Origin: an uncultured bacterium
GTDB lineage: Bacteria > Patescibacteriota > Gracilibacteria > Absconditabacterales > Absconditicoccaceae
Direction of reading: 5' to 3'
Assembly: GCA_937862935.1 (NCBI GenBank)
Contig: CALMEO010000055.1
Span: 19,927 to 83,926, forward strand
DNA: 64,000 nucleotides
Below are positions 13,691 to 64,000 of the stretch, piece by piece. The position numbers and the translations under genes were made by a program. Every line of letters begins with the position of its first letter. Position 1 is the first letter of the stretch. The notes under the pieces are model-generated. The model saw nothing but the letters and a program-made list of their open reading frames with translations. It was not told the origin of the DNA and did no database searches.

Positions 13691-13698
13691 CACACATA

Positions 13699-19265: not shown

Positions 19266-19287
19266 TCCAATTAAAATTCAAAATACT

Positions 19288-19314: not shown

Positions 19315-19381
19315 TGTTAGTATTATTTGAATTAATAGTATAACTTTCTATATTTATATCAAATAATATTATTAACATTTT

Positions 19382-24876: not shown

Positions 24877-25992
24877 ATGTCAAACTTAATACAAGGAAAG
24901 CAGATTAATGTAGAATTAACAGGATCCTTCTCAGGAAGTTTCACCGGTATTTTACAGGGAACTTCGTCTTGGTCTGAGAATACTGTTAGTAGTTCCTTTG
25001 CAACTACTGCATCATATTTGTTAACCAGCCCTGTTTTTACAGGATCCTTTACTCCCACTTCTTCTTTTAATTATTTTACATCTTCTTATAACACAGGGAG
25101 TTTCAGAGGAGACTTAATAGGAACTTCATCTTGGTCTGGGAATTCTGTAAGTAGTTCCTTTGCAACTACTGCATCATATTTGTCAGGAAATTTCACACTT
25201 GATAGGGTTTCGAACATTTCAGCATCTTCTGCTCAAAATTACAATATACTTATTTTCAGTACATCATCCCTGCTTTGGGAAAGTAAAAATCCCTTTAGTG
25301 AGTTTGCAGCAAACCCTATAAAGTATGGTGAACATGTAAATGTTCCAACCTTCGGTTCTCTATCCCATAACAATGTAGAAGGAGTTACGATGGTATTTAA
25401 CGGTCCTGTTGCTAGAACATGGGCTGATACAAATGTTGTGACAAGAACACAAAGAATGGGGCTTGCGGGTGGTACTACTGGTACTGTAGGTGGTCAATTT
25501 AGACAAATTACTCAATATATGAGTAGAAATGGTGGTTTCTCAATAACATCTGGTTTTAATATGGCTGAAAACGCAAATGATACAGCTATTAGATTTTTTA
25601 TGGGTATTAGAAATAGTATCGGTACTTGGTCGAATGTAGAACCAGATACTTTGATTAATTTAATTGGTGTATGTCGATTATCAACGTCTGATAATCTACA
25701 GCTTTTACATAATGATGGTACAGGTACTGCAACCACAATTGATTTAGGTTCAAATTTCCCAGCAAACACAGTATCAACAGATAAATACGTATTTTTTATT
25801 GAAACTGTTCCAACTGGTGTTTATTTCAAAATTGAAAGAGTTGGAACTGATTTTATTTATGAAAAAATAATAACTACAAATTTACCAGCATCAGATTTAG
25901 GGATGGTCCTTGGTGGTTATATTGTAGATACTTCTGGTGCCAATACACCAACAGGTTTTGACTGGCACGGAAGTTACGTAAAAGTAGGTTAA
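24877..25992 (+). CDS. putative tail fibre / receptor-binding protein with internal repeats
   Basis: Ser/Thr-rich N-terminus with the duplicated GTSSWS.N.VSSSFATTASYL unit; Gly-rich C-terminal domain. Confidence 0.4.
   Translation: MSNLIQGKQINVELTGSFSGSFTGILQGTSSWSENTVSSSFATTASYLLTSPVFTGSFTPTSSFNYFTSSYNTGSFRGDLIGTSSWSGNSVSSSFATTASYLSGNFTLDRVSNISASSAQNYNILIFSTSSLLWESKNPFSEFAANPIKYGEHVNVPTFGSLSHNNVEGVTMVFNGPVARTWADTNVVTRTQRMGLAGGTTGTVGGQFRQITQYMSRNGGFSITSGFNMAENANDTAIRFFMGIRNSIGTWSNVEPDTLINLIGVCRLSTSDNLQLLHNDGTGTATTIDLGSNFPANTVSTDKYVFFIETVPTGVYFKIERVGTDFIYEKIITTNLPASDLGMVLGGYIVDTSGANTPTGFDWHGSYVKVG
24958..25183 (+). repeat. 64-bp imperfect direct repeat, 2 copies (24958..25021 and 25120..25183) in the fibre-like gene
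   Basis: GGAACTTC(G/A)TCTTGGTCTG.GAAT.CTGT.AGTAGTTCCTTTGCAACTACTGCATCATATTTGT. Confidence 0.85.
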
Positions 25993-25993
25993 A

Positions 25994-26001
25994 CTATTTA
26001 T
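25994..26001 (+). promoter_or_regulatory. CTATTTAT box
   Basis: 19 nt upstream of ATG 26020. Confidence 0.5.
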
Positions 26002-26019
26002 TATTGAATAATCAGTGGG

Positions 26020-26481
26020 ATGAAATACTATACATCTAAATACGGTAACATTATTAAAGTTGATTTAGGAAATATTACTCTTGTTTCTATGGAAGAATCT
26101 TCTGAAGAATACAAACAATTCCTTGAGTTTCTTAACAGTGGAGGAACTGTTAACTCAAGTAATTTTTCTACTATGGAAGAAGATACCTTGTTTAACATAG
26201 AAAAAGAGACACAGACCTATTTAAAGAGAATCAACGATGGAGCTATTGCAATATCAAAGTTTTCTGCTGAAATACGAGTAGCTAAACTTTCTGGGGTAAT
26301 TTCAGAAGAAGGACAAAAAGTTGTTGATAAAGTATTAAAACCTGTTAGAGATGAAATACTTGCAGGCCAATGGATTTCAGCAAAAGATGAACTCCTAACA
26401 ATAGGAAGCAGTATTATAGGTCAAAAACTATATGAAAGAATATTAACAGAAATACAAACATATATTATAGATAATTACTAA
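26020..26481 (+). CDS. hypothetical protein
   Basis: CTATTTAT box 19 nt upstream. Confidence 0.55.
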   Translation: MKYYTSKYGNIIKVDLGNITLVSMEESSEEYKQFLEFLNSGGTVNSSNFSTMEEDTLFNIEKETQTYLKRINDGAIAISKFSAEIRVAKLSGVISEEGQKVVDKVLKPVRDEILAGQWISAKDELLTIGSSIIGQKLYERILTEIQTYIIDNY

Positions 26482-26798
26482 TGATTTTATTTTTTATTGC
26501 ATATATTTTACTTCTACCCCTTACACTTTTTAATTATTTTGTAGTAAGAAACAAAGGTTACTTTAAAAGTACAGCTACAAATATTGATATGTTTGGAAAT
26601 AGGGAATTTAGGGCTACTTGGAATAGGTTTTTAATTACCGAAGATGGGTATAAATTTGGAGATTCAAGAGAAACCATTTCATCAGTTTTAGGAAAAAATA
26701 AAATAGCTGGAACATTAACAAAAACAGGTAAGATTTTATGTTGGATATTAGATTCAATAGACCATAACCACTGTATTAAATCAATAAAAAATTTATGA
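26481..26798 (+). CDS. hypothetical membrane protein
   Basis: N-terminal hydrophobic helix MILFFIAYILLLPLTLF. Confidence 0.5.
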   Translation: MILFFIAYILLLPLTLFNYFVVRNKGYFKSTATNIDMFGNREFRATWNRFLITEDGYKFGDSRETISSVLGKNKIAGTLTKTGKILCWILDSIDHNHCIKSIKNL

Positions 26799-27184
26799 AA
26801 AATATTAATATTACATGTCCGATTTGTCCAATAATAAAAGATAGGGTTGTAAAGTACTATCTGAATATTGGTAAAATTTTTACACCTGACTTCATAAAGC
26901 AAAATTACCATAAACACCTTGTATATTCCCTAGTATTGACATTTTTTACTATATGGTTCTTATTTAAGTTTGCCCATTTGGGAGACACAGGGATACTCTT
27001 TCCTATTTTTATAGGAGGATTTGGAGCTTATTGGGTAAATTTTGCAAGAGAATTTTATTTTAGTAAATTCCGTGATGCACCTTGGGATGGTACAGATCTT
27101 GATATGGGAAGTTACGGAGGAATTATTGGTGCAATTTTATTTTCTACGATAAATTGGATTAATGGTTTGTTACATATATTCTAA
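26795..27184 (+). CDS. hypothetical multi-pass membrane protein
   Basis: Several hydrophobic segments (LVYSLVLTFFTIWFLF, ILFPIFIGGFGAYWV, GGIIGAILFSTI). Confidence 0.5.
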   Translation: MKNINITCPICPIIKDRVVKYYLNIGKIFTPDFIKQNYHKHLVYSLVLTFFTIWFLFKFAHLGDTGILFPIFIGGFGAYWVNFAREFYFSKFRDAPWDGTDLDMGSYGGIIGAILFSTINWINGLLHIF

Positions 27185-52936: not shown

Positions 52937-53623
52937 ATGCATTACGTATATATTACTACAAATCTTATTAACAAGAAATACTATATAGGAAAACATAAAG
53001 GAGAAGTTGATGATAGGTATCTTGGATCAGGAGTAGTTTTAAAGCAAGCTATAGAAAAATACGGAAAAGATAATTTTGAAAAAGAAATCTTAGTAATTTG
53101 TTCAACAGAGGAAGAAGCTAATCACTGGGAGAGAATCACTATACAGGAACATCTATCAGATCCAAACTGCTACAATATCGCCCCAGGAGGAGAGGGAGGT
53201 TATACAATTAAGCATTTTTCTGAAGAAGAAAAACAGAAAGTAAGGCAGAAAGCATCAAAAAGTTATAAACAGTACATAATATCTCACCCAGAGGAAGTAA
53301 AATCTCGGCAGGAGAGACAAAAAGTAACGTTACTTTCCAATATAGAAAATCATAGAAAAGCTGTTAAAGAAGGTCTACTGACGAGATCGGAAGAAGACAA
53401 GAAAGCACAGCATGAAAAGATAACACAGAAAAAATTAGATAACGGATACTACAGTGAATATCAGTTAATAGATCCGGAAGGAAATACGGTAATGCAAAGT
53501 ATTGGAGCAGAAAATATTGCAAAAAAATACGGAGCAACACCTAATGGGATACGATTAGCTGCTAAACACAGACAGCCTATTTCAAGAGGAGTATTAAAAG
53601 GGTATAAAGTAGTAAAAATTTAA
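52937..53623 (+). CDS. GIY-YIG homing endonuclease
   Basis: HYVYITTNLINKKYYIGKH...YLGSG. Confidence 0.85.
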   Translation: MHYVYITTNLINKKYYIGKHKGEVDDRYLGSGVVLKQAIEKYGKDNFEKEILVICSTEEEANHWERITIQEHLSDPNCYNIAPGGEGGYTIKHFSEEEKQKVRQKASKSYKQYIISHPEEVKSRQERQKVTLLSNIENHRKAVKEGLLTRSEEDKKAQHEKITQKKLDNGYYSEYQLIDPEGNTVMQSIGAENIAKKYGATPNGIRLAAKHRQPISRGVLKGYKVVKI

Positions 53624-54444: not shown

Positions 54445-54557
54445 AGTCAGGTGGCGGAAAGGTAAACGCTCACAGGTTGGTATTGTAAAAGAGGAATTGA
54501 CCTCCATCTCCATGTTTTAATGGTTATACCTTACAGGTTCAAATCCTGTCCTGACTA
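54445..54557 (+). tRNA. oversized tRNA-like gene (113 nt), anticodon unresolved
   Basis: Acceptor AGTCAGG/CCTGACT, D arm GCG-GAAAGGTAAA-CGC, T arm ACAGG-TTCAAAT-CCTGT, CAAA trailer; the middle holds a branched GGTAT...ATACC domain with two 6-nt-loop hairpins. Confidence 0.4.
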
Positions 54558-54561
54558 CAAA

Positions 54562-54647
54562 GATCATTTAGTGTAAGTAGCAATTCATGCTCATAGGTAA
54601 CACGGTGTCGTGAACACCAGATGAGAGTTCGAGTCCCTCAATGATCT
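54562..54647 (+). tRNA. aberrant tRNA-like gene (86 nt), anticodon unresolved
   Basis: Acceptor GATCATT/AATGATC, T arm GAGAG-TTCGAGT-CCCTC, CAAAAT trailer; GTGT...ACAC helix encloses a 25-nt loop; GGTGT-CGTGA-ACACC hairpin has a 5-nt loop. Confidence 0.35.
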
Positions 54648-54667
54648 CAAAATAAAATAAAGACTAG

Positions 54668-54696
54668 TTGGTAGTCTGAAAAATTATTCATATATT
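54668..54696 (+). promoter_or_regulatory. sigma70-like TTGGTA-N17-TATATT element (copy A)
   Basis: Exact 17-nt spacing; downstream of the aberrant tRNA pair. Confidence 0.4.
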
Positions 54697-54735
54697 AAAG
54701 TATGATTAAAAGATACATGAAATGGGTAACAGAGC

Positions 54736-54743
54736 CTATTTAT
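54736..54743 (+). promoter_or_regulatory. CTATTTAT box
   Basis: 18 nt upstream of ATG 54761. Confidence 0.45.
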
Positions 54744-54760
54744 ATATAGAACAATAAAAA

Positions 54761-54913
54761 ATGAAAGCAATTCAAAACATACAACAGTTTAAAAGCACAG
54801 CGCATAGAGCCATTCAAGTGGTATCGGATTCGTTATGTGGCGATTTTAGCTGGGATGTAATTCTTGAATCTTCATATAATAACGAACCTAAACTAGGAGG
54901 TACCGAGGTATGA
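54761..54913 (+). CDS. small hypothetical protein (50 aa), not in ORF track
   Basis: CTATTTAT box 18 nt upstream and a rho-independent terminator 30 nt downstream. Confidence 0.45.
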   Translation: MKAIQNIQQFKSTAHRAIQVVSDSLCGDFSWDVILESSYNNEPKLGGTEV

Positions 54914-54943
54914 TATAAGTTCTAAAACATAGACTTATTAAGT

Positions 54944-54976
54944 ACCCGGATCAGAAAAAAGATTCGGGTTTTTTAT
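54944..54976 (+). terminator. rho-independent terminator after the small ORF 54761..54913
   Basis: ACCCGGATC-AGAAAAAA-GATTCGGGT followed by TTTTTT. Confidence 0.75.
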
Positions 54977-54985
54977 TGAAAAAAA

Positions 54986-55057
54986 AGTTGGTAGATTGAA
55001 ATATTATCACTATATTTAAAGTATAGAAATAAGGTCATTGACATATTGGATAAAATT
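54986..55057 (+). repeat. about 72-bp dispersed repeat, copy 1 (promoter-like)
   Basis: About 90 percent identical by eye to 61360..61432; contains TTGGTA-N17-TATATT and TTGACA. Confidence 0.8.
54988..55016 (+). promoter_or_regulatory. sigma70-like TTGGTA-N17-TATATT element (copy B)
   Basis: Follows a terminator; 44 nt upstream of tRNA-Ser; part of a 72-bp repeat. Confidence 0.45.
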
Positions 55058-55059
55058 AA

Positions 55060-55147
55060 GGAGAGTGAAGCAGCGCCATGGAGGTGCGACTAGTCTTGAA
55101 AACTAGGTCCCGTCTTTTCGGGTGGGGTTCGAGTCCTCCGCTCTCCG
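55060..55147 (+). tRNA. tRNA-Ser(UGA)
   Basis: Acceptor GGAGAGT/GCTCTCC, anticodon stem CTAGT/ACTAG, loop CT-TGA-AA, long variable arm CCCG..CGGG, T loop TTCGAGT. Confidence 0.85.
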
Positions 55148-55153
55148 CAATAT

Positions 55154-55225
55154 TGGGTTATAGTGTAATGGTTAGCACAAAACACTTTGGCTGTTTTAGT
55201 CTAGGTTCGAATCCTAGTAAGCCAA
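55154..55225 (+). tRNA. tRNA-Gln(UUG)
   Basis: Acceptor TGGGTTA/TAAGCCA (U1-A72, one G.G mismatch), stem AAACA/TGTTT, loop CT-TTG-GC, T arm CTAGG-TTCGAAT-CCTAG. Confidence 0.8.
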
Positions 55226-55240
55226 CCGAGTGCTGTTTTT

Positions 55241-55273
55241 GTATTTCCTTCCTATTTATTAGAAAGGAAGTAC
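55241..55273 (+). promoter_or_regulatory. hairpin enclosing the promoter box upstream of the GIY-YIG gene
   Basis: GTATTTCCTT pairs with AAGGAAGTAC, 10 bp including one G.U; ATG at 55277. Confidence 0.5.
55252..55259 (+). promoter_or_regulatory. CTATTTAT box inside a hairpin loop
   Basis: 18 nt upstream of the GIY-YIG ATG 55277. Confidence 0.5.
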
Positions 55274-55276
55274 ATC

Positions 55277-55957
55277 ATGGCAAAAAGAGTATACGGTACA
55301 AGAAAAAAATATCATTTTATTTATAAAACTACAAATTTACTAAGTGGAAGATACTATATAGGAATGCATTCAACAGATGACCTGAATGACGGATATTTAG
55401 GATCGGGTACATTATTAAGAAGATCTATAAAAAAGCACGGTAAAGAAAACTTTAAAATAGAGATCTTAGAATTTTTAGATTCAAGGGAAGCTTTAGTAGC
55501 AAGAGAAAAAGAGATCATATCTCTTCAAGAAATTGCTAAGAAAGAATGTATGAATTTAAAAGTAGGAGGAGAAGGAGGATTCTCCAGCGAAGAGCATAAA
55601 CAAAAATTCCTACAAGGACGAGAGTGGGGAAAGCTTTTAGGAGCTAAAACAGGAGGAGATCTTAGACGAGGAGTAGGTTTAGAAAGCACACACAGAGCTC
55701 TGATTAGTTTAAAAATGAAAGAACACTATACAACAAATATAGGACACTTCAGCAATAAAACACATTCAGAACAGACTAAGAAAAAAATGTCAAATGCTAA
55801 AAAAGGAAAAGGATTAGCACAGACTAATTCACAATACGGAACTTGTTGGATCACCGATGAGTATTCCAATAAAAAAATAATAAAAGGAGAAACAATCCCA
55901 GAAGGATGGAGATTAGGAAGAAAAATAAAAAAGCAATCCCTCTGCCACGGGTATTAG
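55277..55957 (+). CDS. GIY-YIG homing endonuclease
   Basis: YHFIYKTTNLLSGRYYIGMH...GYLGSG; C-terminal WITDE...PEGWRLGRKIK; last 10 nt overlap tRNA-Pro. Confidence 0.85.
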   Translation: MAKRVYGTRKKYHFIYKTTNLLSGRYYIGMHSTDDLNDGYLGSGTLLRRSIKKHGKENFKIEILEFLDSREALVAREKEIISLQEIAKKECMNLKVGGEGGFSSEEHKQKFLQGREWGKLLGAKTGGDLRRGVGLESTHRALISLKMKEHYTTNIGHFSNKTHSEQTKKKMSNAKKGKGLAQTNSQYGTCWITDEYSNKKIIKGETIPEGWRLGRKIKKQSLCHGY

Positions 55958-56023
55958 AGGAGTCCGGTCTATCTCGCTGCATTTGGGATGCAGAGCACGC
56001 AGGTTCGAATCCTGCATACCCGA
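55948..56023 (+). tRNA. tRNA-Pro(UGG)
   Basis: Acceptor CGGGTAT/ATACCCG, stem CTGCA/TGCAG, loop TT-TGG-GA, T arm GCAGG-TTCGAAT-CCTGC. Confidence 0.85.
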
Positions 56024-56081
56024 CGAGTGAGACTGTTACTAATTCATAGAACTATAGAGTGTTTGCATAGAATTAGATTAT

Positions 56082-56153
56082 TCCCTCGTAGCAAATCGGT
56101 ATAGGCAATAGACTTTTAATCTATGGGATCAGGTTCAACTCCTGACGGGGGAA
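56082..56153 (+). tRNA. tRNA-Lys(UUU)
   Basis: Acceptor TCCCTCG/CGGGGGA, stem ATAGA/TCTAT, loop CT-TTT-AA, T arm TCAGG-TTCAACT-CCTGA. Confidence 0.8.
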
Positions 56154-56243
56154 CAAAAATCAACTAGTCACTGTAAAACCAGTGGGCGTCAGTAAGTATT
56201 CTGAGCGACGTTTAAATCCTGAAAGCAATTGTTGATTTTATTT

Positions 56244-56314
56244 GCCTCGATGATGTAATGGTAGCGTCGTTGTTTTACATGCAACAGGTGGAAGTTCGAT
56301 TCTTTCTCGAGGTA
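56244..56314 (+). tRNA. tRNA-Val(UAC)
   Basis: Acceptor GCCTCGA/TCGAGGT, stem GTTGT/GCAAC, loop TT-TAC-AT, T arm GGAAG-TTCGATT-CTTTC. Confidence 0.85.
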
Positions 56315-56360
56315 CTGTAGACTTTTTGAAAAGTTAGCCTATTCATTATAAACAGTAGAT
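56315..56360 (+). repeat. conserved GIY-YIG 5' flank, copy 1 (after tRNA-Val)
   Basis: CTGTAGACTTTTTGAAAAGTTAGCCTATTCATT... Confidence 0.9.
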
Positions 56361-57005
56361 ATGGCTAACATCAAAGAGAATAAAAAATACCACTACACTT
56401 ATAAGACAACAAATCTTATAAATGGTAGATATTATCTGGGAATGCACTCAACTAACCGTTTAGATGACGGTTACTTAGGAAGTGGTAAAAGACTTTATTA
56501 TGAATTAAATAAATACGGTAGAGACAATTTTAAGTTTGAACTACTAGAGCAATTTAATTCAAGAGAGGAATTAGTTCAAGCTGAAATTAATCTAATAACA
56601 GAACAAGATTTAAAAAATATAAACTGTTTAAACCTGAGTAAAGGAGGTAGTGGTGGTATTCATAACGAGGATCATTACAAGGCTTTTGTAAAAGGACCTA
56701 AGAATACAAGTGGGTGGATCTTGAACATGAAAAACCTAAAAGCAAACCCAGAATGGGTGAAATGGCATAGGGAATTAGTTATAAAAGGTCTTAGAGAGTA
56801 TTACAAAGTTTCAGAAGGACCTTTTAAAGGTAAGCAACATAAACCTGAGACTATTGAAAAAATGAAAGCGTCTCACAAAGGAGCAGGGAAAGGAACTAAT
56901 AATTCTCAATATGGTACTTGTTGGATTACAAACGAAACAGAAAATAAAAAAAATATACAAAGGAGATCTAATCCCAGAAGGTTGGAGATTGGGACGAAAA
57001 ATTAA
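56361..57005 (+). CDS. GIY-YIG homing endonuclease, C-terminus frameshifted in an A8 run
   Basis: MANIKENKKYHYTYKTTNLINGRYYLGMH; the paralogue-like ending IPEGWRLGRKIK is encoded in the +1 frame after 56946..56953. Confidence 0.75.
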   Translation: MANIKENKKYHYTYKTTNLINGRYYLGMHSTNRLDDGYLGSGKRLYYELNKYGRDNFKFELLEQFNSREELVQAEINLITEQDLKNINCLNLSKGGSGGIHNEDHYKAFVKGPKNTSGWILNMKNLKANPEWVKWHRELVIKGLREYYKVSEGPFKGKQHKPETIEKMKASHKGAGKGTNNSQYGTCWITNETENKKNIQRRSNPRRLEIGTKN

Positions 57006-57012
57006 ATAAACT

Positions 57013-57091
57013 GGGGTTATTGAGCAGGTGGTGAGCTCAGCGGTCTGTAAAATCGTGATTATTCTTGTAGGTTCGATTCCTACTAGCCCCA
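57013..57091 (+). tRNA. tRNA-Tyr(GUA)
   Basis: Acceptor GGGGTTA/TAGCCCC, D arm GAGC..GCTC, stem GCGGT/ATCGT, loop CT-GTA-AA, 10-nt variable region, T arm GTAGG-TTCGATT-CCTAC. Confidence 0.8.
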
Positions 57092-57158
57092 CAGTCAAAT
57101 TTTCTAACGTATGAAAAAACATTCAGTCTTCTAAGTACTAATCGTAACTTAGAAAAAG

Positions 57159-57434
57159 ATGTCAAGAAGTCGAAAAAAACCTTACTGTAAGGATAAGGGA
57201 ATGTCAACACAGGAATATTGGAAAGTTATCCGACATGAGTGGAAACAAACACTAAAACAAAATTATTGGAAAGATAGTTTGTACTTTAGAAACCCTGAGG
57301 AGATAATTAATGATTGGACAAGATGTGATTACATTTGGTTCATTAAAGAAAGTAGACCTTACTGGGGTGATGAAGAACCGATGCACTGGTTTGGATACAC
57401 TAAAGAAGATGTTAAAAAATACTCTAGAAAATAG
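57159..57434 (+). CDS. hypothetical Trp/Lys-rich small protein
   Basis: 91-aa ORF between tRNA-Tyr and tRNA-Phe. Confidence 0.5.
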   Translation: MSRSRKKPYCKDKGMSTQEYWKVIRHEWKQTLKQNYWKDSLYFRNPEEIINDWTRCDYIWFIKESRPYWGDEEPMHWFGYTKEDVKKYSRK

Positions 57435-57441
57435 GGTACTC

Positions 57442-57514
57442 GGAGCAGTGGCAGATCAGGTGATTGCGCTAGTCTGAAAAACTAGAGGAACGAGATCGTT
57501 ACTCGTCTGCTCCA
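57442..57514 (+). tRNA. tRNA-Phe(GAA)
   Basis: Acceptor GGAGCAG/CTGCTCC, stem CTAGT/ACTAG, loop CT-GAA-AA, T arm ACGAG-ATCGTTA-CTCGT (unusual A54/T58). Confidence 0.75.
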
Positions 57515-57626
57515 CAAAGTAGTTCTTGTCCCTTGTAAGGTGTGAAAGAATATATAAACGGTTTTTGCAGGTTCAAATCCTGGGTCTTGCAACTTTTTGC
57601 AAGTAGAACCGTGAGAATTACGAATT

Positions 57627-57698
57627 GGATTGTTAGCTCAGAGGCAGAGCGGTTGTTTGTTAGGCAACGGGTCGGGATTTCGAAATTCCCACAATCCT
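57627..57698 (+). tRNA. tRNA-Asn(GUU)
   Basis: Acceptor GGATTGT/ACAATCC, D arm GCTC-AGAGGCA-GAGC, stem GTTGT/GCAAC, loop TT-GTT-AG. Confidence 0.85.
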
Positions 57699-57704
57699 CA
57701 AAAT

Positions 57705-57776
57705 TGCTCTATCGTATAAAGGTTATTACGGATGACTGTTAATCATTTTATCTAGGTTCAAGTCCTAGTGGAGCAG
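57705..57776 (+). tRNA. tRNA-Asn(GUU), second copy with a divergent body
   Basis: Acceptor TGCTCTA/TGGAGCA, stem GATGA/TCATT, loop CT-GTT-AA, T arm CTAGG-TTCAAGT-CCTAG. Confidence 0.65.
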
Positions 57777-57897
57777 CAAGGGGTGTTAGTATCTCCTGAC
57801 GGGTTTAGATGTGTAACTTTCCCTCCAACAACTAACATTATAATTGGATTAATAAGGAACAACTCTTCGTAAGGTTATCAGATTAAACGTTACAACT

Positions 57898-57969
57898 GCT
57901 CCTATAGTAGAATGGTTAGCACACATCTCTGATAAGGATGAAATGGAGGTTCAATTCCTTCTAGGAGTA
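57898..57969 (+). tRNA. tRNA-Ile(GAU)
   Basis: Acceptor GCTCCTA/TAGGAGT, stem CATCT/GGATG, loop CT-GAT-AA, T arm GGAGG-TTCAATT-CCTTC. Confidence 0.8.
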
Positions 57970-57976
57970 CAGAAAT

Positions 57977-58063
57977 GGAGAATAGTCTAATATTGGTTTG
58001 TAGTGGCATCCTGCTAAGATGTTCCTGGTAAAACAGGTGAGAGTTCGATTCTCTTGTTCTCCG
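57977..58063 (+). tRNA. tRNA-Ser(GCU)
   Basis: Acceptor GGAGAAT/GTTCTCC, stem GCATC/GATGT, loop CT-GCT-AA, variable arm CCTG-GTAAAA-CAGG, T loop TTCGATT. Confidence 0.85.
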
Positions 58064-58192
58064 CAAAAACCTGTTCCCCGTCCTCACAAAGCATCTAAGG
58101 AATGCAGGAGTAGAATAGTACGTTCGGGGCCTTGTGGTAGGACACTTTAAAATCTAAAGTACAAAGATAAGTTAACAGGTTCTTATCAAATT

Positions 58193-58261
58193 GCCGAAGG
58201 ATCAGGTGATCGAGAATGGCTCATATCCGTTTTCAGGGTGGATCGTTACCACTCTTCGGTA
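58193..58261 (+). tRNA. tRNA-Met(CAU) (or Ile2/lysidine type), compact 69 nt
   Basis: Acceptor GCCGAAG/CTTCGGT, stem AATGG/CCGTT, loop CT-CAT-AT, T arm GGTGG-ATCGTTA-CCACT, short D arm. Confidence 0.65.
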
Positions 58262-58363
58262 CAAAAAATATCTAGGTAACAACCTGAGTTAAAGAAAGAA
58301 CTGGTTCACTCCTTCGTAATATTGTAACCCGCGGCTACAAAAAAGAAGAGGTATTTTTTACAC

Positions 58364-58437
58364 GGTGTATGTAGCTAAATGGTAAAGCGCTTGATTGTGG
58401 TTCAAGTCATTTGCGGGTTCAAGTCCCGTCGTACACC
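58364..58437 (+). tRNA. tRNA-His(GUG) with encoded G-1
   Basis: G-1 opposite C73, acceptor GTGTATG/CGTACAC, stem CTTGA/TCAAG, loop TT-GTG-GT, T arm GCGGG-TTCAAGT-CCCGT. Confidence 0.85.
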
Positions 58438-58571
58438 CAACAAATTAAGAAAAAGCTAATGGAGCTGTAAGTTAATAAGCAACCGGGATGGTGGATTTAA
58501 TCCTGGTGCGAAAAGTAAAACCAGAGGGATAAGTCCAATAAAAACCTCAAAAACTTACCTTAATTTTAAAT

Positions 58572-58644
58572 GCCTCTGTGGTGGAATGGAAGACACAACG
58601 AGTTTAAGCCTCGTACGCTGCAGGTTCGACTCCTGTCAGAGGTA
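58572..58644 (+). tRNA. tRNA-Leu(UAA) with a short (5-nt) variable loop
   Basis: Acceptor GCCTCTG/CAGAGGT, Leu-type D arm GTG-GAATGGAAGA-CAC, stem ACGAG/CTCGT, loop TT-TAA-GC, variable ACGCT, A73. Confidence 0.75.
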
Positions 58645-58896
58645 CAAAAAATTAAAGTGACGGAATTAGACGTTAAGAGAGATGAAGTGTTTATAACATC
58701 AGGTTGCGACTGGTGTATGTAAAACCAAGTTAAACTACCGTTAACTAAGTTTCTAGTACGAAGATTGATCCTCGTCGCAGAAGAAGTAGTATTAGAGATG
58801 TACCACAGGGGTTATAGACAATTATAACTGTTGGGTTTAGGTCGAAATGTTTAACATGTAGGTACCCAGTCCTACCTTTAATTTTTATTAACTATT

Positions 58897-59193
58897 ATGA
58901 AAGAGTTACCAGATACATTTAAGGAGTATATCATATATCAGTTAGAATATGGTAAAATCAAGATGTGTAGTGCATTTACTAGTCTGTTTTTTCATAAAGG
59001 ATATACAGGATTTAGGTACAGAGAGGTCTACAGTTTAGTGCAAGATGAAATTAGGAGATTTCGTACTGAAGAAGGTGTAAAAAGGAAGGAACAAGAACGT
59101 CTGTTAGAGGAAAAGAAACGGATGGCTAATCAACAGAGAAGTCTAAGTATGAAACGTTATTGGGAGCATAAGAAAAATTTCAAACAGGTTTAA
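58897..59193 (+). CDS. hypothetical small basic protein
   Basis: 98-aa ORF within the tRNA island. Confidence 0.5.
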   Translation: MKELPDTFKEYIIYQLEYGKIKMCSAFTSLFFHKGYTGFRYREVYSLVQDEIRRFRTEEGVKRKEQERLLEEKKRMANQQRSLSMKRYWEHKKNFKQV

Positions 59194-59269
59194 ACACTAA
59201 AGAAGTAAATTATTTAAACTCAAGGAATCGGGCATATGAAAAAGTGACTTCTAACTTAATGTTAAAAAT

Positions 59270-59341
59270 GGTCCTATAGTTTAATTGGAAAAATTTAAGA
59301 ATACGAATCTTAGGTTAGGGGTTCGAATCCTCTTAGGACTT
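59270..59341 (+). tRNA. tRNA-Arg(ACG)
   Basis: Acceptor GGTCCTA/TAGGACT, stem TAAGA/TCTTA, loop AT-ACG-AA, T arm AGGGG-TTCGAAT-CCTCT. Confidence 0.8.
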
Positions 59342-59352
59342 CAAAAAAGATT

Positions 59353-59423
59353 GCCCTATTAGTTTAACGGAAGAACATATCTCTTCTAAAGATAGAGTCT
59401 TGGTTCGAGTCCAAGATGGGGTT
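59353..59423 (+). tRNA. tRNA-Arg(UCU)
   Basis: Acceptor GCCCTAT/ATGGGGT, stem TATCT/AGATA, loop CT-TCT-AA, T arm CTTGG-TTCGAGT-CCAAG. Confidence 0.8.
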
Positions 59424-59427
59424 CAAT

Positions 59428-59487
59428 ATATATGTAAAAACATATAAAAAAGTTAATATTAGGTAATTTATATGTTTTTACATATAT
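59428..59487. repeat. perfect 21-bp inverted repeat with an 18-nt spacer
   Basis: ATATATGTAAAAACATATAAA (59428..59448) versus TTTATATGTTTTTACATATAT (59467..59487). Confidence 0.9.
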
Positions 59488-59503
59488 CTAAAAATTTACT
59501 AAT

Positions 59504-59574
59504 ACGTCAGTGGTGTAATGGTAACATACCGGTCTCCAAAACCGACGATAAGAGTTCGAATCTCTTTTGACGTG
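59504..59574 (+). tRNA. tRNA-Trp(CCA)
   Basis: Acceptor ACGTCAG/TTGACGT, anticodon arm CCGGT-CTCCAAA-ACCGA (as in bacterial tRNA-Trp), T arm AAGAG-TTCGAAT-CTCTT. Confidence 0.8.
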
Positions 59575-59618
59575 CTGTAGACTTTTTGAAAAGTTAGCCT
59601 ATTTATTGAAAAATAAGT
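59575..59618 (+). repeat. conserved GIY-YIG 5' flank, copy 2 (after tRNA-Trp)
   Basis: CTGTAGACTTTTTGAAAAGTTAGCCTATTTATT... Confidence 0.9.
59599..59606 (+). promoter_or_regulatory. CTATTTAT box
   Basis: 13 nt upstream of the GIY-YIG ATG 59619. Confidence 0.5.
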
Positions 59619-60269
59619 ATGGCTAACATCAAAGAGAATAAAAAATATCATTTTACATATAAGACAACAAATCTTATAAACAAAAGGTATTACTTAGGGA
59701 TGCATTCAACTAACCGTTTAGATGACGGATATATAGGAAGCGGTAAAAGACTTTATTACGAATTAAACAAATACGGTAAAGAGAATTTTAAATTTGAAAT
59801 ACTAAAACAGTTTAATTCAAGGGAGCAGTTAGTTGAAGCTGAAACAAGCTTAATAAGTGAAGAAGTTTTGAAAGATCCAAACTGTCTTAACATGGTAGTA
59901 GGAGGTTCAGGAGGAAATGTAGGTAAAGGAGGAGAGCACTTAGGAGGAGATTGCTGGGCAGCTGCTAATAAATATTGGAAAACAGAAGAAGGATTCAAAA
60001 AGAAATCAGAGACTGCAAAAAAAGTAGCTAAGAGAAGAATACAAGAGGGTACTTGGAATGTCTTTCAAAAAGGAAACCAGGTATGGAAAGGAAGAAAGCA
60101 TACACCTGAGACTATTGAAAAAATGAAAGAGACAAAAAAAGGTCATGGGAAAGGTATAAATAATTCACAATTTGGAAAATGTTGGATAACTAACGAAGTT
60201 GAAAGTAAGAAAATTCACAAAGGAGAACTAATTCCAGAAGGATGGAGATTAGGCCGAAAGATAAAATAA
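59619..60269 (+). CDS. GIY-YIG homing endonuclease
   Basis: MANIKENKKYHFTYKTTNLINKRYYLGMH...GYIGSG; ends PEGWRLGRKIK. Confidence 0.85.
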   Translation: MANIKENKKYHFTYKTTNLINKRYYLGMHSTNRLDDGYIGSGKRLYYELNKYGKENFKFEILKQFNSREQLVEAETSLISEEVLKDPNCLNMVVGGSGGNVGKGGEHLGGDCWAAANKYWKTEEGFKKKSETAKKVAKRRIQEGTWNVFQKGNQVWKGRKHTPETIEKMKETKKGHGKGINNSQFGKCWITNEVESKKIHKGELIPEGWRLGRKIK

Positions 60270-60329
60270 CTTTGGCATGAAAAAAGAATTTGATGCTCAC
60301 TAGGTTTATTAACCTAAAAGTGAGCAAAA

Positions 60330-60515
60330 ATGCGAATTAAACATTATACTAACAGAGAGTATAAAAAACAAAAACGTAGAGAGTATCCGGAATGGGATAA
60401 ATGGTTTGAGGATAACTGGAGTAAAAAGTCTAAAATATGGGCTTTCAAGTACAGAGAATACAGAACATGGAAACATAGCCGAAAAACTCAATACAAAACT
60501 AAATTGTTTCATTAA
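60330..60515 (+). CDS. hypothetical small basic protein
   Basis: 61-aa Lys/Arg/Trp-rich ORF. Confidence 0.4.
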   Translation: MRIKHYTNREYKKQKRREYPEWDKWFEDNWSKKSKIWAFKYREYRTWKHSRKTQYKTKLFH

Positions 60516-60526
60516 AAAAGGAAATC

Positions 60527-61033
60527 ATGAGTAAGTACAGAAAAACACTCGTAGTGGATTCAAGCTTTATTGCAAGAAGCATTATACCTGCTGAAAGAGC
60601 ATTCGTGATTTCATATAAAGGTAATGCTGAAGTAATTGCTGATCACCCAGAATCGTTTGGGTTAGTAAATCCTGAATTAGACATTAAAAAACCTTCAATC
60701 ATCAGGGTTTTTAAGTTTGTAAAGCAAAACATTCTAAAAGTACCTCTTACAAGAGAGAATATCTACAGAAGAGATAATTATGAATGTGTTTACTGTGGAA
60801 GTGATAATGTCAAAACATTAACATTGGACCACGTAATACCTCAATCAAAAGGAGGAAAAGACAGTTGGGATAATCTAGTTACAGCTTGTAAAAGATGCAA
60901 TGGTGAAAAGTCAGACTTAACATTAGAGGAATATGGAAAAGAAATTCCAACTCCATACCGTCCACATTACTTAATGTTAATGAAACAGATGCATGACATC
61001 CCAGAAGAATGGAAACATTTTTTATTATTTTAG
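60527..61033 (+). CDS. HNH endonuclease
   Basis: CVYCGS...LDHVIPQSKGGKDSWDNLVTACKRCNGEKSD. Confidence 0.85.
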   Translation: MSKYRKTLVVDSSFIARSIIPAERAFVISYKGNAEVIADHPESFGLVNPELDIKKPSIIRVFKFVKQNILKVPLTRENIYRRDNYECVYCGSDNVKTLTLDHVIPQSKGGKDSWDNLVTACKRCNGEKSDLTLEEYGKEIPTPYRPHYLMLMKQMHDIPEEWKHFLLF

Positions 61034-61036
61034 GAT

Positions 61037-61195
61037 ATGGAATTTTACAAAATAGGTAACACAAAACTTGAATTAGGATTTCGTAAGCTGTTACAAATGT
61101 CAGACAGAAAAGCTAGAATAGAAGGAATTGAAAAACTAACAAAAACCAAAATTATTATTGAAAATAATAATGTATTTATAATATGGTTAAAATAA
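61037..61195 (+). CDS. small hypothetical protein (52 aa), not in ORF track
   Basis: ATG 4 nt after the HNH gene stop. Confidence 0.35.
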   Translation: MEFYKIGNTKLELGFRKLLQMSDRKARIEGIEKLTKTKIIIENNNVFIIWLK

Positions 61196-61270
61196 AACAC
61201 CTGCTACGTAGTCACTACAGGACAATACGTACAGACAGGGAAGAAAAGATCAGCCCAGGTGTTTTAAATT

Positions 61271-61340
61271 GGCTTGTCTGGTCTTGGAGGCCGGTTGGAT
61301 TGCAAACCCAATAGAGACAGTTCGATTCTGTCACAAGCCT
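61271..61340 (+). tRNA. tRNA-Cys(GCA)
   Basis: Acceptor GGCTTGT/ACAAGCC, loop TT-GCA-AA, T arm GACAG-TTCGATT-CTGTC, U73 discriminator. Confidence 0.8.
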
Positions 61341-61359
61341 CAAAAAGAGTTTTAAAAAT

Positions 61360-61432
61360 AGTTGGTAGATTAAAATATTATCACTATATTAAAAGTATAA
61401 TAATAAGGTCATTGACATATTGGATAAAATTT
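61360..61432 (+). repeat. about 72-bp dispersed repeat, copy 2
   Basis: See 54986..55057. Confidence 0.8.
61362..61390 (+). promoter_or_regulatory. sigma70-like TTGGTA-N17-TATATT element (copy C)
   Basis: Part of the 72-bp repeat, upstream of the Leu-Thr-Gly-Glu tRNA run. Confidence 0.45.
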
Positions 61433-61654
61433 AAGACATTAAATTAACATAGTCGTCACTAGCAGGCGTATTAATCTTTCCGTTATAGACTAAGCGGTCG
61501 TAATGTAGTGTTACATCTCAATAAAACGAGATTGGATCCGATTTAGAAACAAGTACATGTTTCCTTATCTGATTTGGAGTAACTCCTTAGGATGCTTTTT
61601 TAAAGATTGAATATTTTAGGTAATCCAATTCCTATTGACTATGTTAATTAAAAT

Positions 61655-61728
61655 TGCTCCGGTGGTGGAATTGGTAGACACGCTTGACTTAGGATCAAGA
61701 TATTGAGGGTTCGAATCCCTCCTGGAGT
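61655..61728 (+). tRNA. tRNA-Leu(UAG) with a short (5-nt) variable loop
   Basis: Acceptor GCTCCGG/CTGGAGT, canonical Leu D arm GTG-GAATTGGTAGA-CAC, stem CTTGA/TCAAG, loop CT-TAG-GA, variable ATATT, A73. Confidence 0.75.
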
Positions 61729-61800
61729 ACAAAATTAGAGTTAGCTTATAGTAAAGCACCTGAAAAGGATAACGGATACGAAAACCGGCTCTAATTAATT

Positions 61801-61872
61801 TGCCGCTAAAGCATAAAAGGTGATGCACTTGTTTTGTACACAAGACAACGGAGTTCGATTCTTCGTAGCGGC
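61801..61872 (+). tRNA. tRNA-Thr(UGU)
   Basis: Acceptor GCCGCTA/TAGCGGC, D arm GCAT..ATGC, stem CTTGT/ACAAG, loop TT-TGT-AC. Confidence 0.85.
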
Positions 61873-61879
61873 TCAAAAA

Positions 61880-61951
61880 TGCGAATGTCGTATAATGGAT
61901 ATTATTTTTGACTTCCAATCAAAAGATGGCAGTTCGATTCTGCTCATTCGC
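61880..61951 (+). tRNA. tRNA-Gly(UCC)
   Basis: Acceptor GCGAATG/CATTCGC, stem TTTGA/TCAAA, loop CT-TCC-AA, T arm GGCAG-TTCGATT-CTGCT. Confidence 0.85.
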
Positions 61952-62079
61952 TCAAAATTTACCTCAGAGAGGATAAGTTGTGAGGCTACCGTACCTTGGC
62001 ACTTACAACCGTAATGGGGACTTGCAAGGTCTTTAATCCCAAGAGTAAAAGGACGTGAGGGATTGGGTAAATTTTTAAC

Positions 62080-62151
62080 TGCTACCGTCGTCTAACGGCT
62101 AGGACATAACACTTTCACTGTTAAAAAGAGGGTTCGATTCCCTTCGGTAGT
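62080..62151 (+). tRNA. tRNA-Glu(UUC)
   Basis: Acceptor GCTACCG/CGGTAGT, D arm GTCT..GGAC, stem TAACA/TGTTA, loop CT-TTC-AC. Confidence 0.85.
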
Positions 62152-62218
62152 ACAATGTACTTTTTTCATAATTGATTTATTTAATGTAAATTGATATTTA
62201 TTTTTAAATAAATCAATT

Positions 62219-63769
62219 ATGAAGAAGTTAATTACATTAATTTTGTTAATACTTACAACATTAACATACAGTCAAAATAACCTGGTGGTTGATTATTCAC
62301 CAAGTTCTGAAGTAATTGCAAACCCTGAGAGAGGTTTTCACAAATTTACAGAAACCACTTCTACAAGTTACAGTTTTCTTAATCAAACTAGTTTAAATGG
62401 GTACAGAACAGGTGTTGATAAAATTACCATGGTCTATAGAGGGTTTTACCTAGAGAGTTTCATGAATTCATCAATAAGTCAAGCATACTTAAGTAATATG
62501 CAAACAGACTTTAGTACTTTGAGAAATGCTGGGGTAAAAGCAACTATTAGGTTTGGGTATTACACAAGTTCACAAACAGGACCATACCAACCGTCTAAAG
62601 CACAGATAATATCACATATACAACAGTTAGCTCCAATTATAAACTCCAATAAAGATGTTATACTTTCTATTCAAATAGGGTTTATTGGTAGATGGGGCGA
62701 GTATTATTATACAAATTCAACAGAGTTTGGAAATGGAGACTATACAGCATATACATCACTACAATGGCAAAATAGGAAAGAAGTTTTAGATGCATGTTTT
62801 AGTAATTTTGACAGTTCTATTTTTATACAGTTAAGATACCCTTATGCTAAAACAAAAATGTATGGAAACGTTTACATTCCAAGACTGGGGTATTTTAATG
62901 ATGCTTTTTTAAATGTATATGGTGATGAAGGGTTTTTTCCTATTTGTCAAACATGTACTCCAAGTCAGTCTCAAATAAATGAGGTGATTCTGCAGACGGA
63001 AAACAATCCAATGACGGGTGAAACAAACTCAGTAAATTCCCTGACAAATGGAACAAATGCAATAACACAAATGGATTTGTTTAATTGGAGTATAATAAAT
63101 AGAGATTATTATCCGCAAGCGATACAACAGTGGCAGACTGATGGAAGTTTTAGTACTATAATTAATAGGCTTGGTTATAGGTTTAAATTAAATAAAGGAA
63201 TCTATTACCTAAATAATAATGTTTTAGATGTAAATATTTCAACTTCTAATGAAGGTTTTTCAAAAATACTTAAAGAAAAGAATGTTAACATTATTTTAAA
63301 GAGTAGTTTAAATACCTATTACTTTCCATTAGAATATAATGTTAAGAATTGGGGAAATAACATCATAGAAAGTATAAATATTTCCGGGATAATAGATGGA
63401 GTGTATAATGTATATTTAGAGATAGTTGACAAAGATTTACCCAACAATGTTAACTATAAAGTACATTTAGCTAACTCTAACATATGGGATTCAGTTAATG
63501 GATACAATGATTTGAAGTTTACCATAAACAAATCCGGTTCAGGTAGTTTAGGAAATGTGTTAAATTCAATTCCCACTTTAAATGTATATCCAAATCCAAC
63601 TACAGGTATTGTGTATTTACCTTATAAGCTAAGTTATAAGGTGTATAACAGTAATAACAAACTTATAAAAAGTGGTACAGGTACACAGGTTAATATTTCA
63701 AATAAACCGAATGGTATTTACTTTTTAAAGATAGAAGGATTTCAAACAATAAAGATAATCAAACAGTAA
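62219..63769 (+). CDS. secreted DUF4874/DUF4832-like putative glycoside hydrolase with T9SS C-terminal sorting domain
   Basis: Signal peptide MKKLITLILLILTTLTYSQ; NPERGF and GFIGRWGEYYY motifs; C-terminus LNVYPNPTTGIVYL...NGIYFLKIEGFQTIKIIKQ. Confidence 0.65.
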   Translation: MKKLITLILLILTTLTYSQNNLVVDYSPSSEVIANPERGFHKFTETTSTSYSFLNQTSLNGYRTGVDKITMVYRGFYLESFMNSSISQAYLSNMQTDFSTLRNAGVKATIRFGYYTSSQTGPYQPSKAQIISHIQQLAPIINSNKDVILSIQIGFIGRWGEYYYTNSTEFGNGDYTAYTSLQWQNRKEVLDACFSNFDSSIFIQLRYPYAKTKMYGNVYIPRLGYFNDAFLNVYGDEGFFPICQTCTPSQSQINEVILQTENNPMTGETNSVNSLTNGTNAITQMDLFNWSIINRDYYPQAIQQWQTDGSFSTIINRLGYRFKLNKGIYYLNNNVLDVNISTSNEGFSKILKEKNVNIILKSSLNTYYFPLEYNVKNWGNNIIESINISGIIDGVYNVYLEIVDKDLPNNVNYKVHLANSNIWDSVNGYNDLKFTINKSGSGSLGNVLNSIPTLNVYPNPTTGIVYLPYKLSYKVYNSNNKLIKSGTGTQVNISNKPNGIYFLKIEGFQTIKIIKQ

Positions 63770-63837
63770 TTAAACCATATACCGGTTTTAATAATACATT
63801 GAAAGCATGTAGAATTGAAGTCGAGGTACTGTAAAAT

Positions 63838-63910
63838 GGGTCGGTAGCATAAATGGCAAATGCGCTTGATTTGCAATCAGGAAGATTGGGTTCGAATCCC
63901 ACCGTATCCA
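63838..63910 (+). tRNA. tRNA-Ala(UGC) with an imperfect acceptor stem
   Basis: G1-C72, G2-C71, G3.U70 and U4-A69 are present; the inner acceptor pairs need a bulged T; D arm GCAT..ATGC; loop TT-TGC-AA. Confidence 0.65.
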
Positions 63911-63955
63911 CTGTAGACTTTTTGAAAAGTTAGCCTATTTATTTAAAAAATAGAT
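63911..63955 (+). repeat. conserved GIY-YIG 5' flank, copy 3 (after tRNA-Ala)
   Basis: CTGTAGACTTTTTGAAAAGTTAGCCTATTTATT... Confidence 0.9.
63935..63942 (+). promoter_or_regulatory. CTATTTAT box
   Basis: 14 nt upstream of the GIY-YIG ATG 63956. Confidence 0.5.
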
Positions 63956-64000
63956 ATGGCTAATTTCAAAGAGAATAAAAAGTACCACTACACGTATAAG
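63956..64000 (+). CDS. GIY-YIG homing endonuclease, 5' fragment (runs off the window)
   Basis: MANFKENKKYHYTYK, same N-terminus and same 45-bp upstream block as 56361 and 59619. Confidence 0.75.
   Translation, partial: MANFKENKKYHYTYK

Follow-up and report, generated by a model that had tools for sequence, protein, structure and literature searches.

The 64,000-nucleotide stretch of contig CALMEO010000055.1 analysed here, which we call the window, is part of a phage genome and carries towards its end an intact gene, hereafter the cargo gene (Table 1), whose 516-residue product joins a predicted Sec signal peptide, a DUF4874/DUF4832 core folded like a TIM-barrel glycoside hydrolase (GH) and a C-terminal sorting domain (CTD) for a type IX secretion system (T9SS). 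The present analysis shows that the protein falls in a phage-only branch of its family, that the gene travels as a cassette between unrelated phages, and that in four of the contexts inspected it lies between tail-fibre and lysis genes. The reading that we prefer, at a probability of about 0.45, is that the protein would be exported from the infected cell as a hydrolase of host surface or matrix polysaccharide, aiding the release of progeny or destroying receptors.

The open reading frame (ORF) of the cargo gene opens at the first ATG 3′ of an in-frame stop, and hidden Markov models (HMMs) of both core domains match its product in the right order and over nearly their full profile length: PF16173 (DUF4874) at residues 35–209 (E 9.9e-40, 136 bits against a curated cut-off of 30, profile positions 1–158 of 159) and PF16116 (DUF4832) at residues 222–419 (E 3.4e-32, 112 bits against a cut-off of 29, profile positions 1–216 of 216). 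The T9SS domain is recognized by both PF18962 (Por_Secre_tail; residues 456–509, 29.7 bits, cut-off 27) and TIGR04183 (residues 456–516, 25.5 bits, cut-off 23), each clearing its curated cut-off by a small margin. The original prediction, in which this gene was described as phage-encoded T9SS cargo, had named all of these domains, and the model scores uphold it on both the core and the CTD. All the motifs that it quoted are found as well, namely MKKLITLILLILTTLTYSQ at residues 1–19, NPERGF at 35–40, GFIGRWGEYYY at 154–164 and the C-terminus ...LNVYPNPTTGIVYLPYK...NGIYFLKIEGFQTIKIIKQ.

By inspection, the N-terminus shows the n-, h- and c-regions of a signal peptidase I (SPI) substrate, with MKK, the 12 hydrophobic residues LITLILLILTTL, and TYS followed by Q. 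The predicted cleavage after residue 19 would expose Gln20 at position +1, matching the Q-rule of Bacteroidetes signal peptides (PMC5837995). A signal peptide ending in S/A-Q is found in most of the 46 phage and bacterial homologs examined; the gene calls of a few homologs start late, and in one of the contigs (L016) the signal peptide is recovered when an in-frame start further upstream is used. In the AlphaFold2 (AF2) model, residues 2–20 form a detached helix of low confidence.

A type-A CTD is characterized by a PxP motif near its start, a GxY motif in the penultimate strand and a basic K-x-x-K end, and the extreme C-terminus of the cargo protein (residues 456–516 of 516) carries YPNPT, NGIYFLKI and KIIKQ. 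Residues 464–515 are all-β in the AF2 model, as expected of the compact Ig-like β-sandwich of such domains, with a pLDDT of 89–94 for the block, and follow a disordered linker. Searches of the PDB by sequence matched the CTD alone and left the catalytic part without a match, both with the single sequence, which finds the CTD of the 7pzj lipase, and with a profile of 46 family sequences, which finds 7pzj, 8glk, 8glj and 5jvk at E 7e-8 to 3e-6 and, more weakly, the CTDs of the gingipain RgpB. The matched chains of 8glj and 8glk are named Por-secretion CTD and endonuclease I.

The full-length AF2 model, with a pLDDT of 89.3, consists of a helix (residues 2–20), a barrel (~21–320), a β-sandwich (321–440), a linker (441–451) and the all-β CTD. 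Residues 21–440 modelled alone reached a pLDDT of 94.5 and a pTM of 0.92; this second model and its fold search made the fold firmer and pointed to no specific GH family. When the PDB is searched with Foldseek, TIM-barrel glycoside hydrolases make up most of the neighbours (E 1e-8 to 1e-6), which include GH14 β-amylase, GH30 XynC, GH5 endoglucanases, arabinoxylanases, endoglycoceramidases, GH26 mannanase and GH157. Six acidic residues, D97, D146, E161, D228, D236 and E268, are invariant in 120 of 120 homologs, every member of the phage branch included. Of these, E161, in the loop that follows β4, and E268, where β7 ends, form a candidate catalytic pair in the model, placed as in clan GH-A-type enzymes.

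The hydrolase label thus draws on the fold, the invariant acidic residues, the Pfam family and the only characterized DUF4832 enzyme, SIR_1591 of the Streptococcus intermedius pel operon (PMC12345266), and the activity itself is putative. Purified SIR_1591, a TIM barrel with DUF4832, dissolves Pel-dependent aggregates as efficiently as the PelA hydrolase domain; its model resembles β-amylases, and its equivalent of the β-sandwich was called carbohydrate-binding-like (PMC12345266). The two proteins share DUF4832, the combination of TIM barrel and β-sandwich and the β-amylase-like fold neighbours, and SIR_1591 acts extracellularly on a matrix exopolysaccharide. However, SIR_1591 comes from a Gram-positive organism and is anchored by an N-terminal transmembrane helix instead of carrying a signal peptide and a CTD, and the likeness is one of family and fold from which the Pel substrate is not transferable. 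SIR_1591 and a DUF4874-DUF4832-dockerin protein found in the cellulosome proteome of Ruminococcus (PMC7480376) both stand in extracellular carbohydrate-active contexts.

Table 1. Features of the window, with positions counted from its first nucleotide.
Feature	Position	Strand	Basis or remark
CDS: signal peptide, DUF4874/DUF4832 TIM-barrel glycoside-hydrolase-like core, linker, T9SS type-A CTD (cargo gene)	62219..63769	+	516 aa; ORF and HMM matches
Predicted Sec/SPI signal peptide, residues 1–19, MKKLITLILLILTTLTYS followed by Q	62219..62275	+	inspection; homolog conservation
(β/α)8 barrel, residues ~20–320, DUF4874 and first half of DUF4832	62276..63178	+	AF2, Foldseek
β-sandwich, residues 321–440, second half of DUF4832	63179..63538	+	AF2, identity profile
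Gly/Ser-rich disordered linker, residues 441–455, SGSGSLGNVLNSIPT	63539..63583	+	pLDDT <50 at residues 441–451
T9SS type-A C-terminal sorting domain, residues 456–516	63584..63766	+	HMMs, solved CTDs
tRNA-Glu(TTC)	62081..62153	+	65 nt upstream of start codon
tRNA-Ala(TGC)	63838..63909	+	68 nt downstream of stop codon
Rfam tRNA-like match	54445–54557		113 nt, possibly intron-bearing
Rfam tRNA-like match	54562–54647		
Rfam tRNA-like match	55061–55145		best match tRNA-Sec, below gathering score
Homing-endonuclease-type genes (GIY-YIG, NUMOD3-like, HNH) among the tRNAs	52937–53623, 55277–55957, 59619–60269, 60527–61033, 63956 to beyond 64000		
Direct repeat (~0.7 kb), copy 1: 39-nt leader and 216-aa GIY-YIG gene (59619–60269)	59575..60269	+	
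Direct repeat, copy 2: leader and paralogous GIY-YIG gene from 63956	63911..64000	+	runs off the window end
Tail-fibre-like module: 371-aa and 153-aa proteins and ~100-aa ORF	24877..27115	+	tblastn 56%, 50% and 53% identity
Tail sheath gene	27433–29193	+	

The phage nature of the window, which had also been proposed from the sequence, is supported by its likeness to the Flavobacterium phage vB_FspM_immuto (MW353177.1), a 160-kb myophage of the genus Immutovirus with Flavobacterium sp. LMO8 as its host. Between 42.1 and 52.7 kb, where the genes for SSB, a recombinase, an exonuclease, DnaB, ribonucleotide reductase and QueC are found, the two genomes are ~80% identical in nucleotides, and the region of the major capsid gene is 81% identical. 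The large ORFs of the window all lie on the + strand. A bacterial island in place of a phage was considered and is ruled out by the identity of the capsid, the sheath and the replication module to those of immuto. From the 80% nucleotide identity we take the host to be a relative of Flavobacterium, a genus that has the T9SS, and the earlier inference of the host phylum from the sorting domain fits a closest cultured relative that infects Flavobacterium. The QueC (7-cyano-7-deazaguanine synthase) gene lies at 51966–52883, as in immuto, where it is part of a full 7-deazaguanine/DpdA DNA-modification set, and the phage of the window probably modifies its DNA in the same way.

The cargo gene itself is missing from immuto, and tblastn with the full protein found no counterpart in any of 50,697 GenBank phage records, which leaves the gene without a context in a cultured phage. 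An identical protein (P0001) is present on 3–4 metagenomic contigs of the same phage, and homologs then follow at graded identities of 83, 73, 67, 66, 60 and 49–42% before the bacterial proteins of Flavobacterium, Aquimarina and Cytophagaceae are reached at 37–41%. In a neighbour-joining tree of the catalytic region, built without support values, the window protein groups with P0001–P0018, of 488–522 residues, while the bacterial proteins, of 540–570 residues, form separate groups. The latter share the three-part architecture and the same invariant residues, and differ in length, in sequence, in their place in the tree and in being stand-alone chromosomal genes. They are named "DUF4832 domain-containing protein" or "T9SS type A sorting domain-containing protein" (P0054, P0110 and the like), and one of them lies on a 99-kb contig (L019) of a Cytophagaceae metagenome-assembled genome.

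Nine genomic contexts were inspected, eight from the branch and one from a neighbouring branch of short proteins (P0019 on contig L015), and all nine are phage. The window and contigs L006–L008 belong to the immuto-like myophage; L002/L003 belongs to the Crassvirales (Crass_capsid, E 2e-173); L012/L013 is a crAss-like phage of 101.6 kb; and L004 has a Gp23-type (T4-like) capsid and PhoH. The others are phage-like contigs with a holin nearby (L009–L011), contigs full of small co-directional ORFs with phage replication genes (L014, L015 and L016) and short phage contigs (L020–L023). On L015 (6701–9497), the homolog, 42% identical to the window protein, directly follows genes for a sulfotransferase and an APS kinase, and a weak CTP-transferase-like gene lies shortly downstream, past a 101-aa ORF; this cluster may serve glycan modification.

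Recent capture of the gene from the host was considered as an alternative origin and is ruled out: bacterial proteins reach 41% identity at best, a scan by peptide patterns through 185,579 species, each represented by one genome, turned up nothing closer than 38%, and the GC content at third codon positions (GC3) of the gene, 0.230, equals the mean of the other ORFs of the window (0.230). The proposal that the gene behaves like a cargo gene gains from these comparisons and can be extended, since it is missing from immuto and from the GenBank phages and appears as a gene-sized cassette across unrelated phages.

The mobility of the cassette is most evident between L002, a crAss-like phage, and L004, a T4-like phage, in which the genes are ~90% identical and DNA identity of 85–100% is confined to the gene body, with unrelated flanks on both sides. 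The shared tract begins just past the codons of the signal peptide and ends at the stop codon. In L009 the similarity ends instead ~230 nt before the stop codon, at the border between linker and CTD, and a different CTD (38% identity) lies beyond; the linker is therefore the recombination point in this homolog. These two identity profiles indicate a gene-sized cassette that passes between unrelated phages and in which the CTD is an exchangeable module.

Barrel and CTD are conserved to the same degree. When the window protein is compared with those of L002/L004, the identity is 76–78% in the barrel, 46–47% in the β-sandwich, which is the most variable folded part, 33% in the linker and 74–80% in the CTD. 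For the window gene, synonymous sites are saturated (dS 1.3–2.8), so L002 and L004 (dS 0.35) are the only pair for which dN/dS (ω) is quantitatively useful; it amounts to 0.09 in the barrel, 0.08 in the sandwich and 0.22 in the CTD. Against homologs in other phages, the ω of the CTD is 0.11–0.22. Every domain, the CTD included, is under purifying selection (ω 0.08–0.22).

In four contexts (L002/L003, L012/L013, L020/L021 and L022/L023) the cargo gene has tail-fibre or fibre-assembly genes on one side and a holin or endolysin gene on the other. Downstream of it come a holin (Phage_holin_4_1) with an M15 endolysin in L002/L003, two small ORFs with a GH19 endolysin in L012/L013, and a holin (phrog_785) in L020/L021 and L022/L023, where the start of the holin gene overlaps the cargo stop codon by 4 nt. 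In L012, too, the cargo stop overlaps the start of the next gene by 4 nt, as it does in L020 and L022. On the upstream side, tail-fibre-like and tail-fibre-assembly-like genes are present in L002, L004, L012 and L020.

The fibre genes are themselves shared between phage groups. The C-terminal region of the tail fibre (225 aa) is 93% identical between L002 (7653–9206) and L004 (6905–9244), and the two small genes that separate this fibre tip from the cargo gene are 43–50% identical. Each gene of the tail-fibre-like module of the window has a homolog in L002, where the three adjoin the cargo gene on its upstream side, and two of them are also found in L004; its 371-aa protein (24877–25992) is 56% identical to the fibre region shared by L002 and L004. 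In the window, the module is followed by the tail sheath gene in place of the cargo gene. This distribution suggests that receptor-binding tips are exchanged across phage families infecting the same hosts.

From the above features we infer the following route, activity, substrate and benefit. The cargo enzyme would be made in an infected cell of the Flavobacteriia and exported in two steps. Sec and signal peptidase I would remove residues 1–19 and expose Gln20; the host T9SS would then recognize the CTD (residues 456–516) and carry the folded protein across the outer membrane, the CTD being cut off, as would be expected of the T9SS sortase, within the Gly/Ser linker. The mature part, approximately residues 20–440, would comprise the TIM-barrel glycoside hydrolase and the β-sandwich. 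Outside the cell, the enzyme would cut a surface or matrix polysaccharide of the host, which could be capsule, exopolysaccharide (EPS) or a glycan receptor, and progeny virions would then be neither trapped by nor lost to envelope and debris as the cell dies. Phages arriving later might also be blocked as a side effect.

Several observations weigh against this reading. One member of the branch, P0017 (L014, 5537–7003), combines a signal peptide with a complete catalytic core and shows no recognizable CTD, from which it follows that T9SS export is not obligatory for the family; this variant may stay in the periplasm or be released in some other way. The Foldseek likeness holds at the level of the fold only (TM 0.35–0.53, ~10% identity), and flavin-dependent TIM barrels of the old yellow enzyme (OYE) type score in the same range; hence the fold class is clear, yet none of the solved structures comes close and no GH family can be assigned. 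The bacterial homologs P0054 and P0110 stand alone among housekeeping genes and give no clue to a substrate. The cargo gene of the window lies by itself between two tRNA genes, with no lysis or tail genes adjoining. Finally, late expression together with the holin may leave little time for secretion before lysis.

An alternative that we consider unlikely, though it deserves attention, is a role in nutrient acquisition, where the exported enzyme would degrade environmental (e.g., algal) polysaccharide and the cell would take up the products for phage production. The T9SS is the usual export route of polysaccharide-degrading enzymes in Flavobacteriia, the window gene sits with translation-boosting tRNAs rather than lysis genes, the Ruminococcus cellulosome protein mentioned above belongs to the same family, and "additional enzymatic capabilities" have been proposed for phage T9SS cargo by Bellas et al. 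(PMC7468147). However, the four contexts between tail-fibre and holin/endolysin genes are better suited to late release, the co-transfer with the tail-fibre tip points to host-surface specificity, and the phage and bacterial copies inspected lie outside polysaccharide-utilization loci. The linkage to tail-fibre tips would also fit superinfection exclusion, which Bellas et al. suggested for variable T9SS cargo (PMC7468147) and which we regard as rather less likely still: here the enzyme would trim a glycan receptor, or the traffic of cargo would occupy the T9SS so that fewer adhesins are displayed, and competing phages could not adsorb. Literature on Flavobacterium (e.g., 10.1101/2020.10.02.323337, PMC9804748) links phage-resistance mutations to gliding-motility/T9SS genes, which makes it plausible that T9SS-dependent surface structures matter for adsorption, and the homologs near the sulfotransferase and APS kinase of L015 and near a GT4-like gene (see below) would fit glycan remodelling. 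Against this, exclusion functions are typically early, while most homologs are found in late tail/lysis operons, and the conserved catalytic-type residues oppose pure "jamming" of the secretion system. The proposal also overlaps with the preferred hydrolase reading, as receptor destruction would serve both, and the two are hard to separate by sequence.

The placement of the gene directly after tail-fibre or fibre-assembly genes in L002, L004, L012 and L020 could instead indicate a virion-associated depolymerase or tail protein, in which the hydrophobic stretch at the N-terminus and the Ig-like domain at the C-terminus would be structural rather than export signals. Phage depolymerases are commonly tail spikes, and a 731-aa DUF4832 protein occurs in a contig labelled "Ackermannviridae sp.". 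The barrel, however, starts at about residue 21–39, immediately after a canonical SPI-type peptide, with no N-terminal domain for anchoring to the virion; the C-terminal domain passes the cut-offs of T9SS-specific HMMs and carries the CTD motifs; and the protein matches no PHROG family, structural or otherwise, at E ≤ 1. Virions are moreover assembled in the cytoplasm while this protein is addressed to the outside, and 35 kb separate the window gene from the tail module. Given the barrel right behind a cleavable signal, the lack of a structural-family match and the T9SS-specific CTD, we find this the weakest of the rivals and very improbable. Nearly as improbable is a selfish or neutral passenger, spread by recombination or with homing endonucleases at little gain in phage fitness. 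Gene-sized recombination tracts between unrelated phages, the absence from the sister phage immuto and the bracketing of a 4.3-kb segment by two paralogous GIY-YIG genes with an HNH gene adjoining are what such a passenger would show, but purifying selection acts on all domains, the catalytic-type residues are kept throughout a branch in which identity has dropped to 42%, the GC3 is fully adjusted to the phage, and the gene is found again and again as part of late operons in which stop and start codons overlap.

The exported-hydrolase reading may be carried one step further, to a proposal for the whole branch that is possible but on balance doubtful. The branch would be an unrecognized lysis/egress accessory of Bacteroidota phages, a glycanase sent through the T9SS ahead of holin triggering so as to remove capsule, matrix or receptors, matched in specificity to the tail-fibre tip and traded as a cassette among crAss-like, T4-like and immuto-like phages of the same hosts.

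The principle of phage T9SS cargo is already known from two reports. In crAss-like phages of the gut, T9SS sorting-domain proteins were described from sequence beside BACON-repeat ORFs (de Jonge et al. 2019, PMC6949934), and the "Cryophage" was found, also from sequence, to carry three variable T9SS cargo genes, encoding an endoglucanase, a GH39 protein and a PA14 protein, for which hijacking of host secretion was proposed (Bellas et al. 2020, PMC7468147). Signal peptides that follow the Q-rule have also been reported in phages of Porphyromonas gingivalis (PMC10367356). The cargo gene has in common with these crAss-like and Cryophage genes a type-A T9SS sorting domain, and with those of the Cryophage also the fusion to glycoside-hydrolase-type domains and the character of a variable, "flexible" gene; it differs from the latter in its DUF4874/DUF4832 family. 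The phage-only branch across at least three unrelated phage groups, the recurrent site upstream of holin/endolysin genes and the CTD swap are unreported in these two papers (PMC7468147, PMC6949934). What appears to be new is the DUF4874/DUF4832 family as phage cargo, a phage-only branch extending over several groups, the usual position at the start of the lysis cassette and the exchange of the CTD as a module.

A further predicted T9SS cargo is found in immuto itself. The product of immuto136C_15 (MW353177.1, 12691–13422), named "cohesin domain-containing protein" in a GenBank record that makes no mention of T9SS cargo, has a signal peptide ending in YSQ, a cohesin domain and a Por_Secre_tail match of 34.6 bits. 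It resembles the cargo protein in coming from a sister phage lineage and in combining a signal peptide with a T9SS CTD; it differs in its passenger, a cohesin-like binding module and not an enzyme, and in its locus, which adjoins a C-type lectin gene within several kb of sequence missing from the phage of the window. When the 74-aa CTD of the cargo protein and the CTD of the immuto cohesin protein were used as tblastn queries against GenBank phages, nothing was found beyond immuto itself; CTDs are too short and too divergent for such a search.

Soluble or tail-borne phage depolymerases and receptor-masking proteins, such as Llp of phage T5, are parts of the virion, are released by lysis or are lipoproteins, and none of them is known to use the T9SS. 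They share with the cargo enzyme the proposed purpose, namely to clear or disable the host surface so that progeny can escape, or to exclude other phages.

The surroundings of the gene in the window differ from those in the lysis operons. The original prediction had placed it at the end of a tRNA island, flanked by tRNA-Glu and tRNA-Ala. The two flanking tRNAs are as predicted, but the gene lies inside the island rather than at its end, since six more tRNAs follow past the window edge on the same-phage contig L006. The island spans 54445–63909 of the window and continues in L006 to 14463. In the window it holds 21 tRNAs found by ARAGORN and three additional tRNA-like matches of Rfam, and L006 has 27 tRNAs where immuto has 4 at the equivalent place. 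A scan for sigma-70 promoters and intrinsic terminators around the gene gave promoter-like matches near background and no terminators, with models that omit the promoters of Bacteroidota, and by eye the 65-nt leader shows no convincing TAnnTTTG element.

Genes of the homing-endonuclease type are interspersed among the tRNAs (Table 1), and two of them form a direct repeat around the cargo gene. Repeat families D1, D2 and D4 were found in L006 and mapped to the window with an offset of +52218. The 39-nt leaders of the two copies (59575–59613 and 63911–63949) are 97% identical and 4336 nt apart, and the full 216-aa gene of the second copy is seen at 11738–12388 of L006; matches of these genes to GIY-YIG/SegE profiles are weak and below cut-off. 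Within the 4.3-kb segment between the repeats, the cargo gene and tRNA-Ala are accompanied by the HNH gene and five tRNAs. Past the window end, L006 encodes a 339-aa weak GT4-like glycosyltransferase (13213–14232), of which the crAss-like L002 has a 60%-identical homolog 0.9 kb downstream of its cargo gene, a 513-aa TROVE (Ro60-like) protein (15420–16961) and a 682-aa methyltransferase of the N6_Mtase/Eco57I type (18527–20575).

If the preferred reading holds, Bacteroidota phages place enzymes of their own outside the cell before lysis by means of the host secretion system. This would bear on the escape of phages from capsule and biofilm matrix, on competition between phages at the cell surface and on the turnover of polysaccharides by Bacteroidota of water and gut. 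For experiments, the repeated occurrence beside the holin offers a definite starting point, and the combination of a T9SS CTD with a Q-rule signal peptide is a practical marker of the host phylum for uncultured phage contigs. The phage branch offers a compact, well-modelled enzyme of 488–522 residues, whose family lacks a solved structure and has hardly any biochemistry to its name, and it could serve as a reagent for degrading EPS or biofilms.

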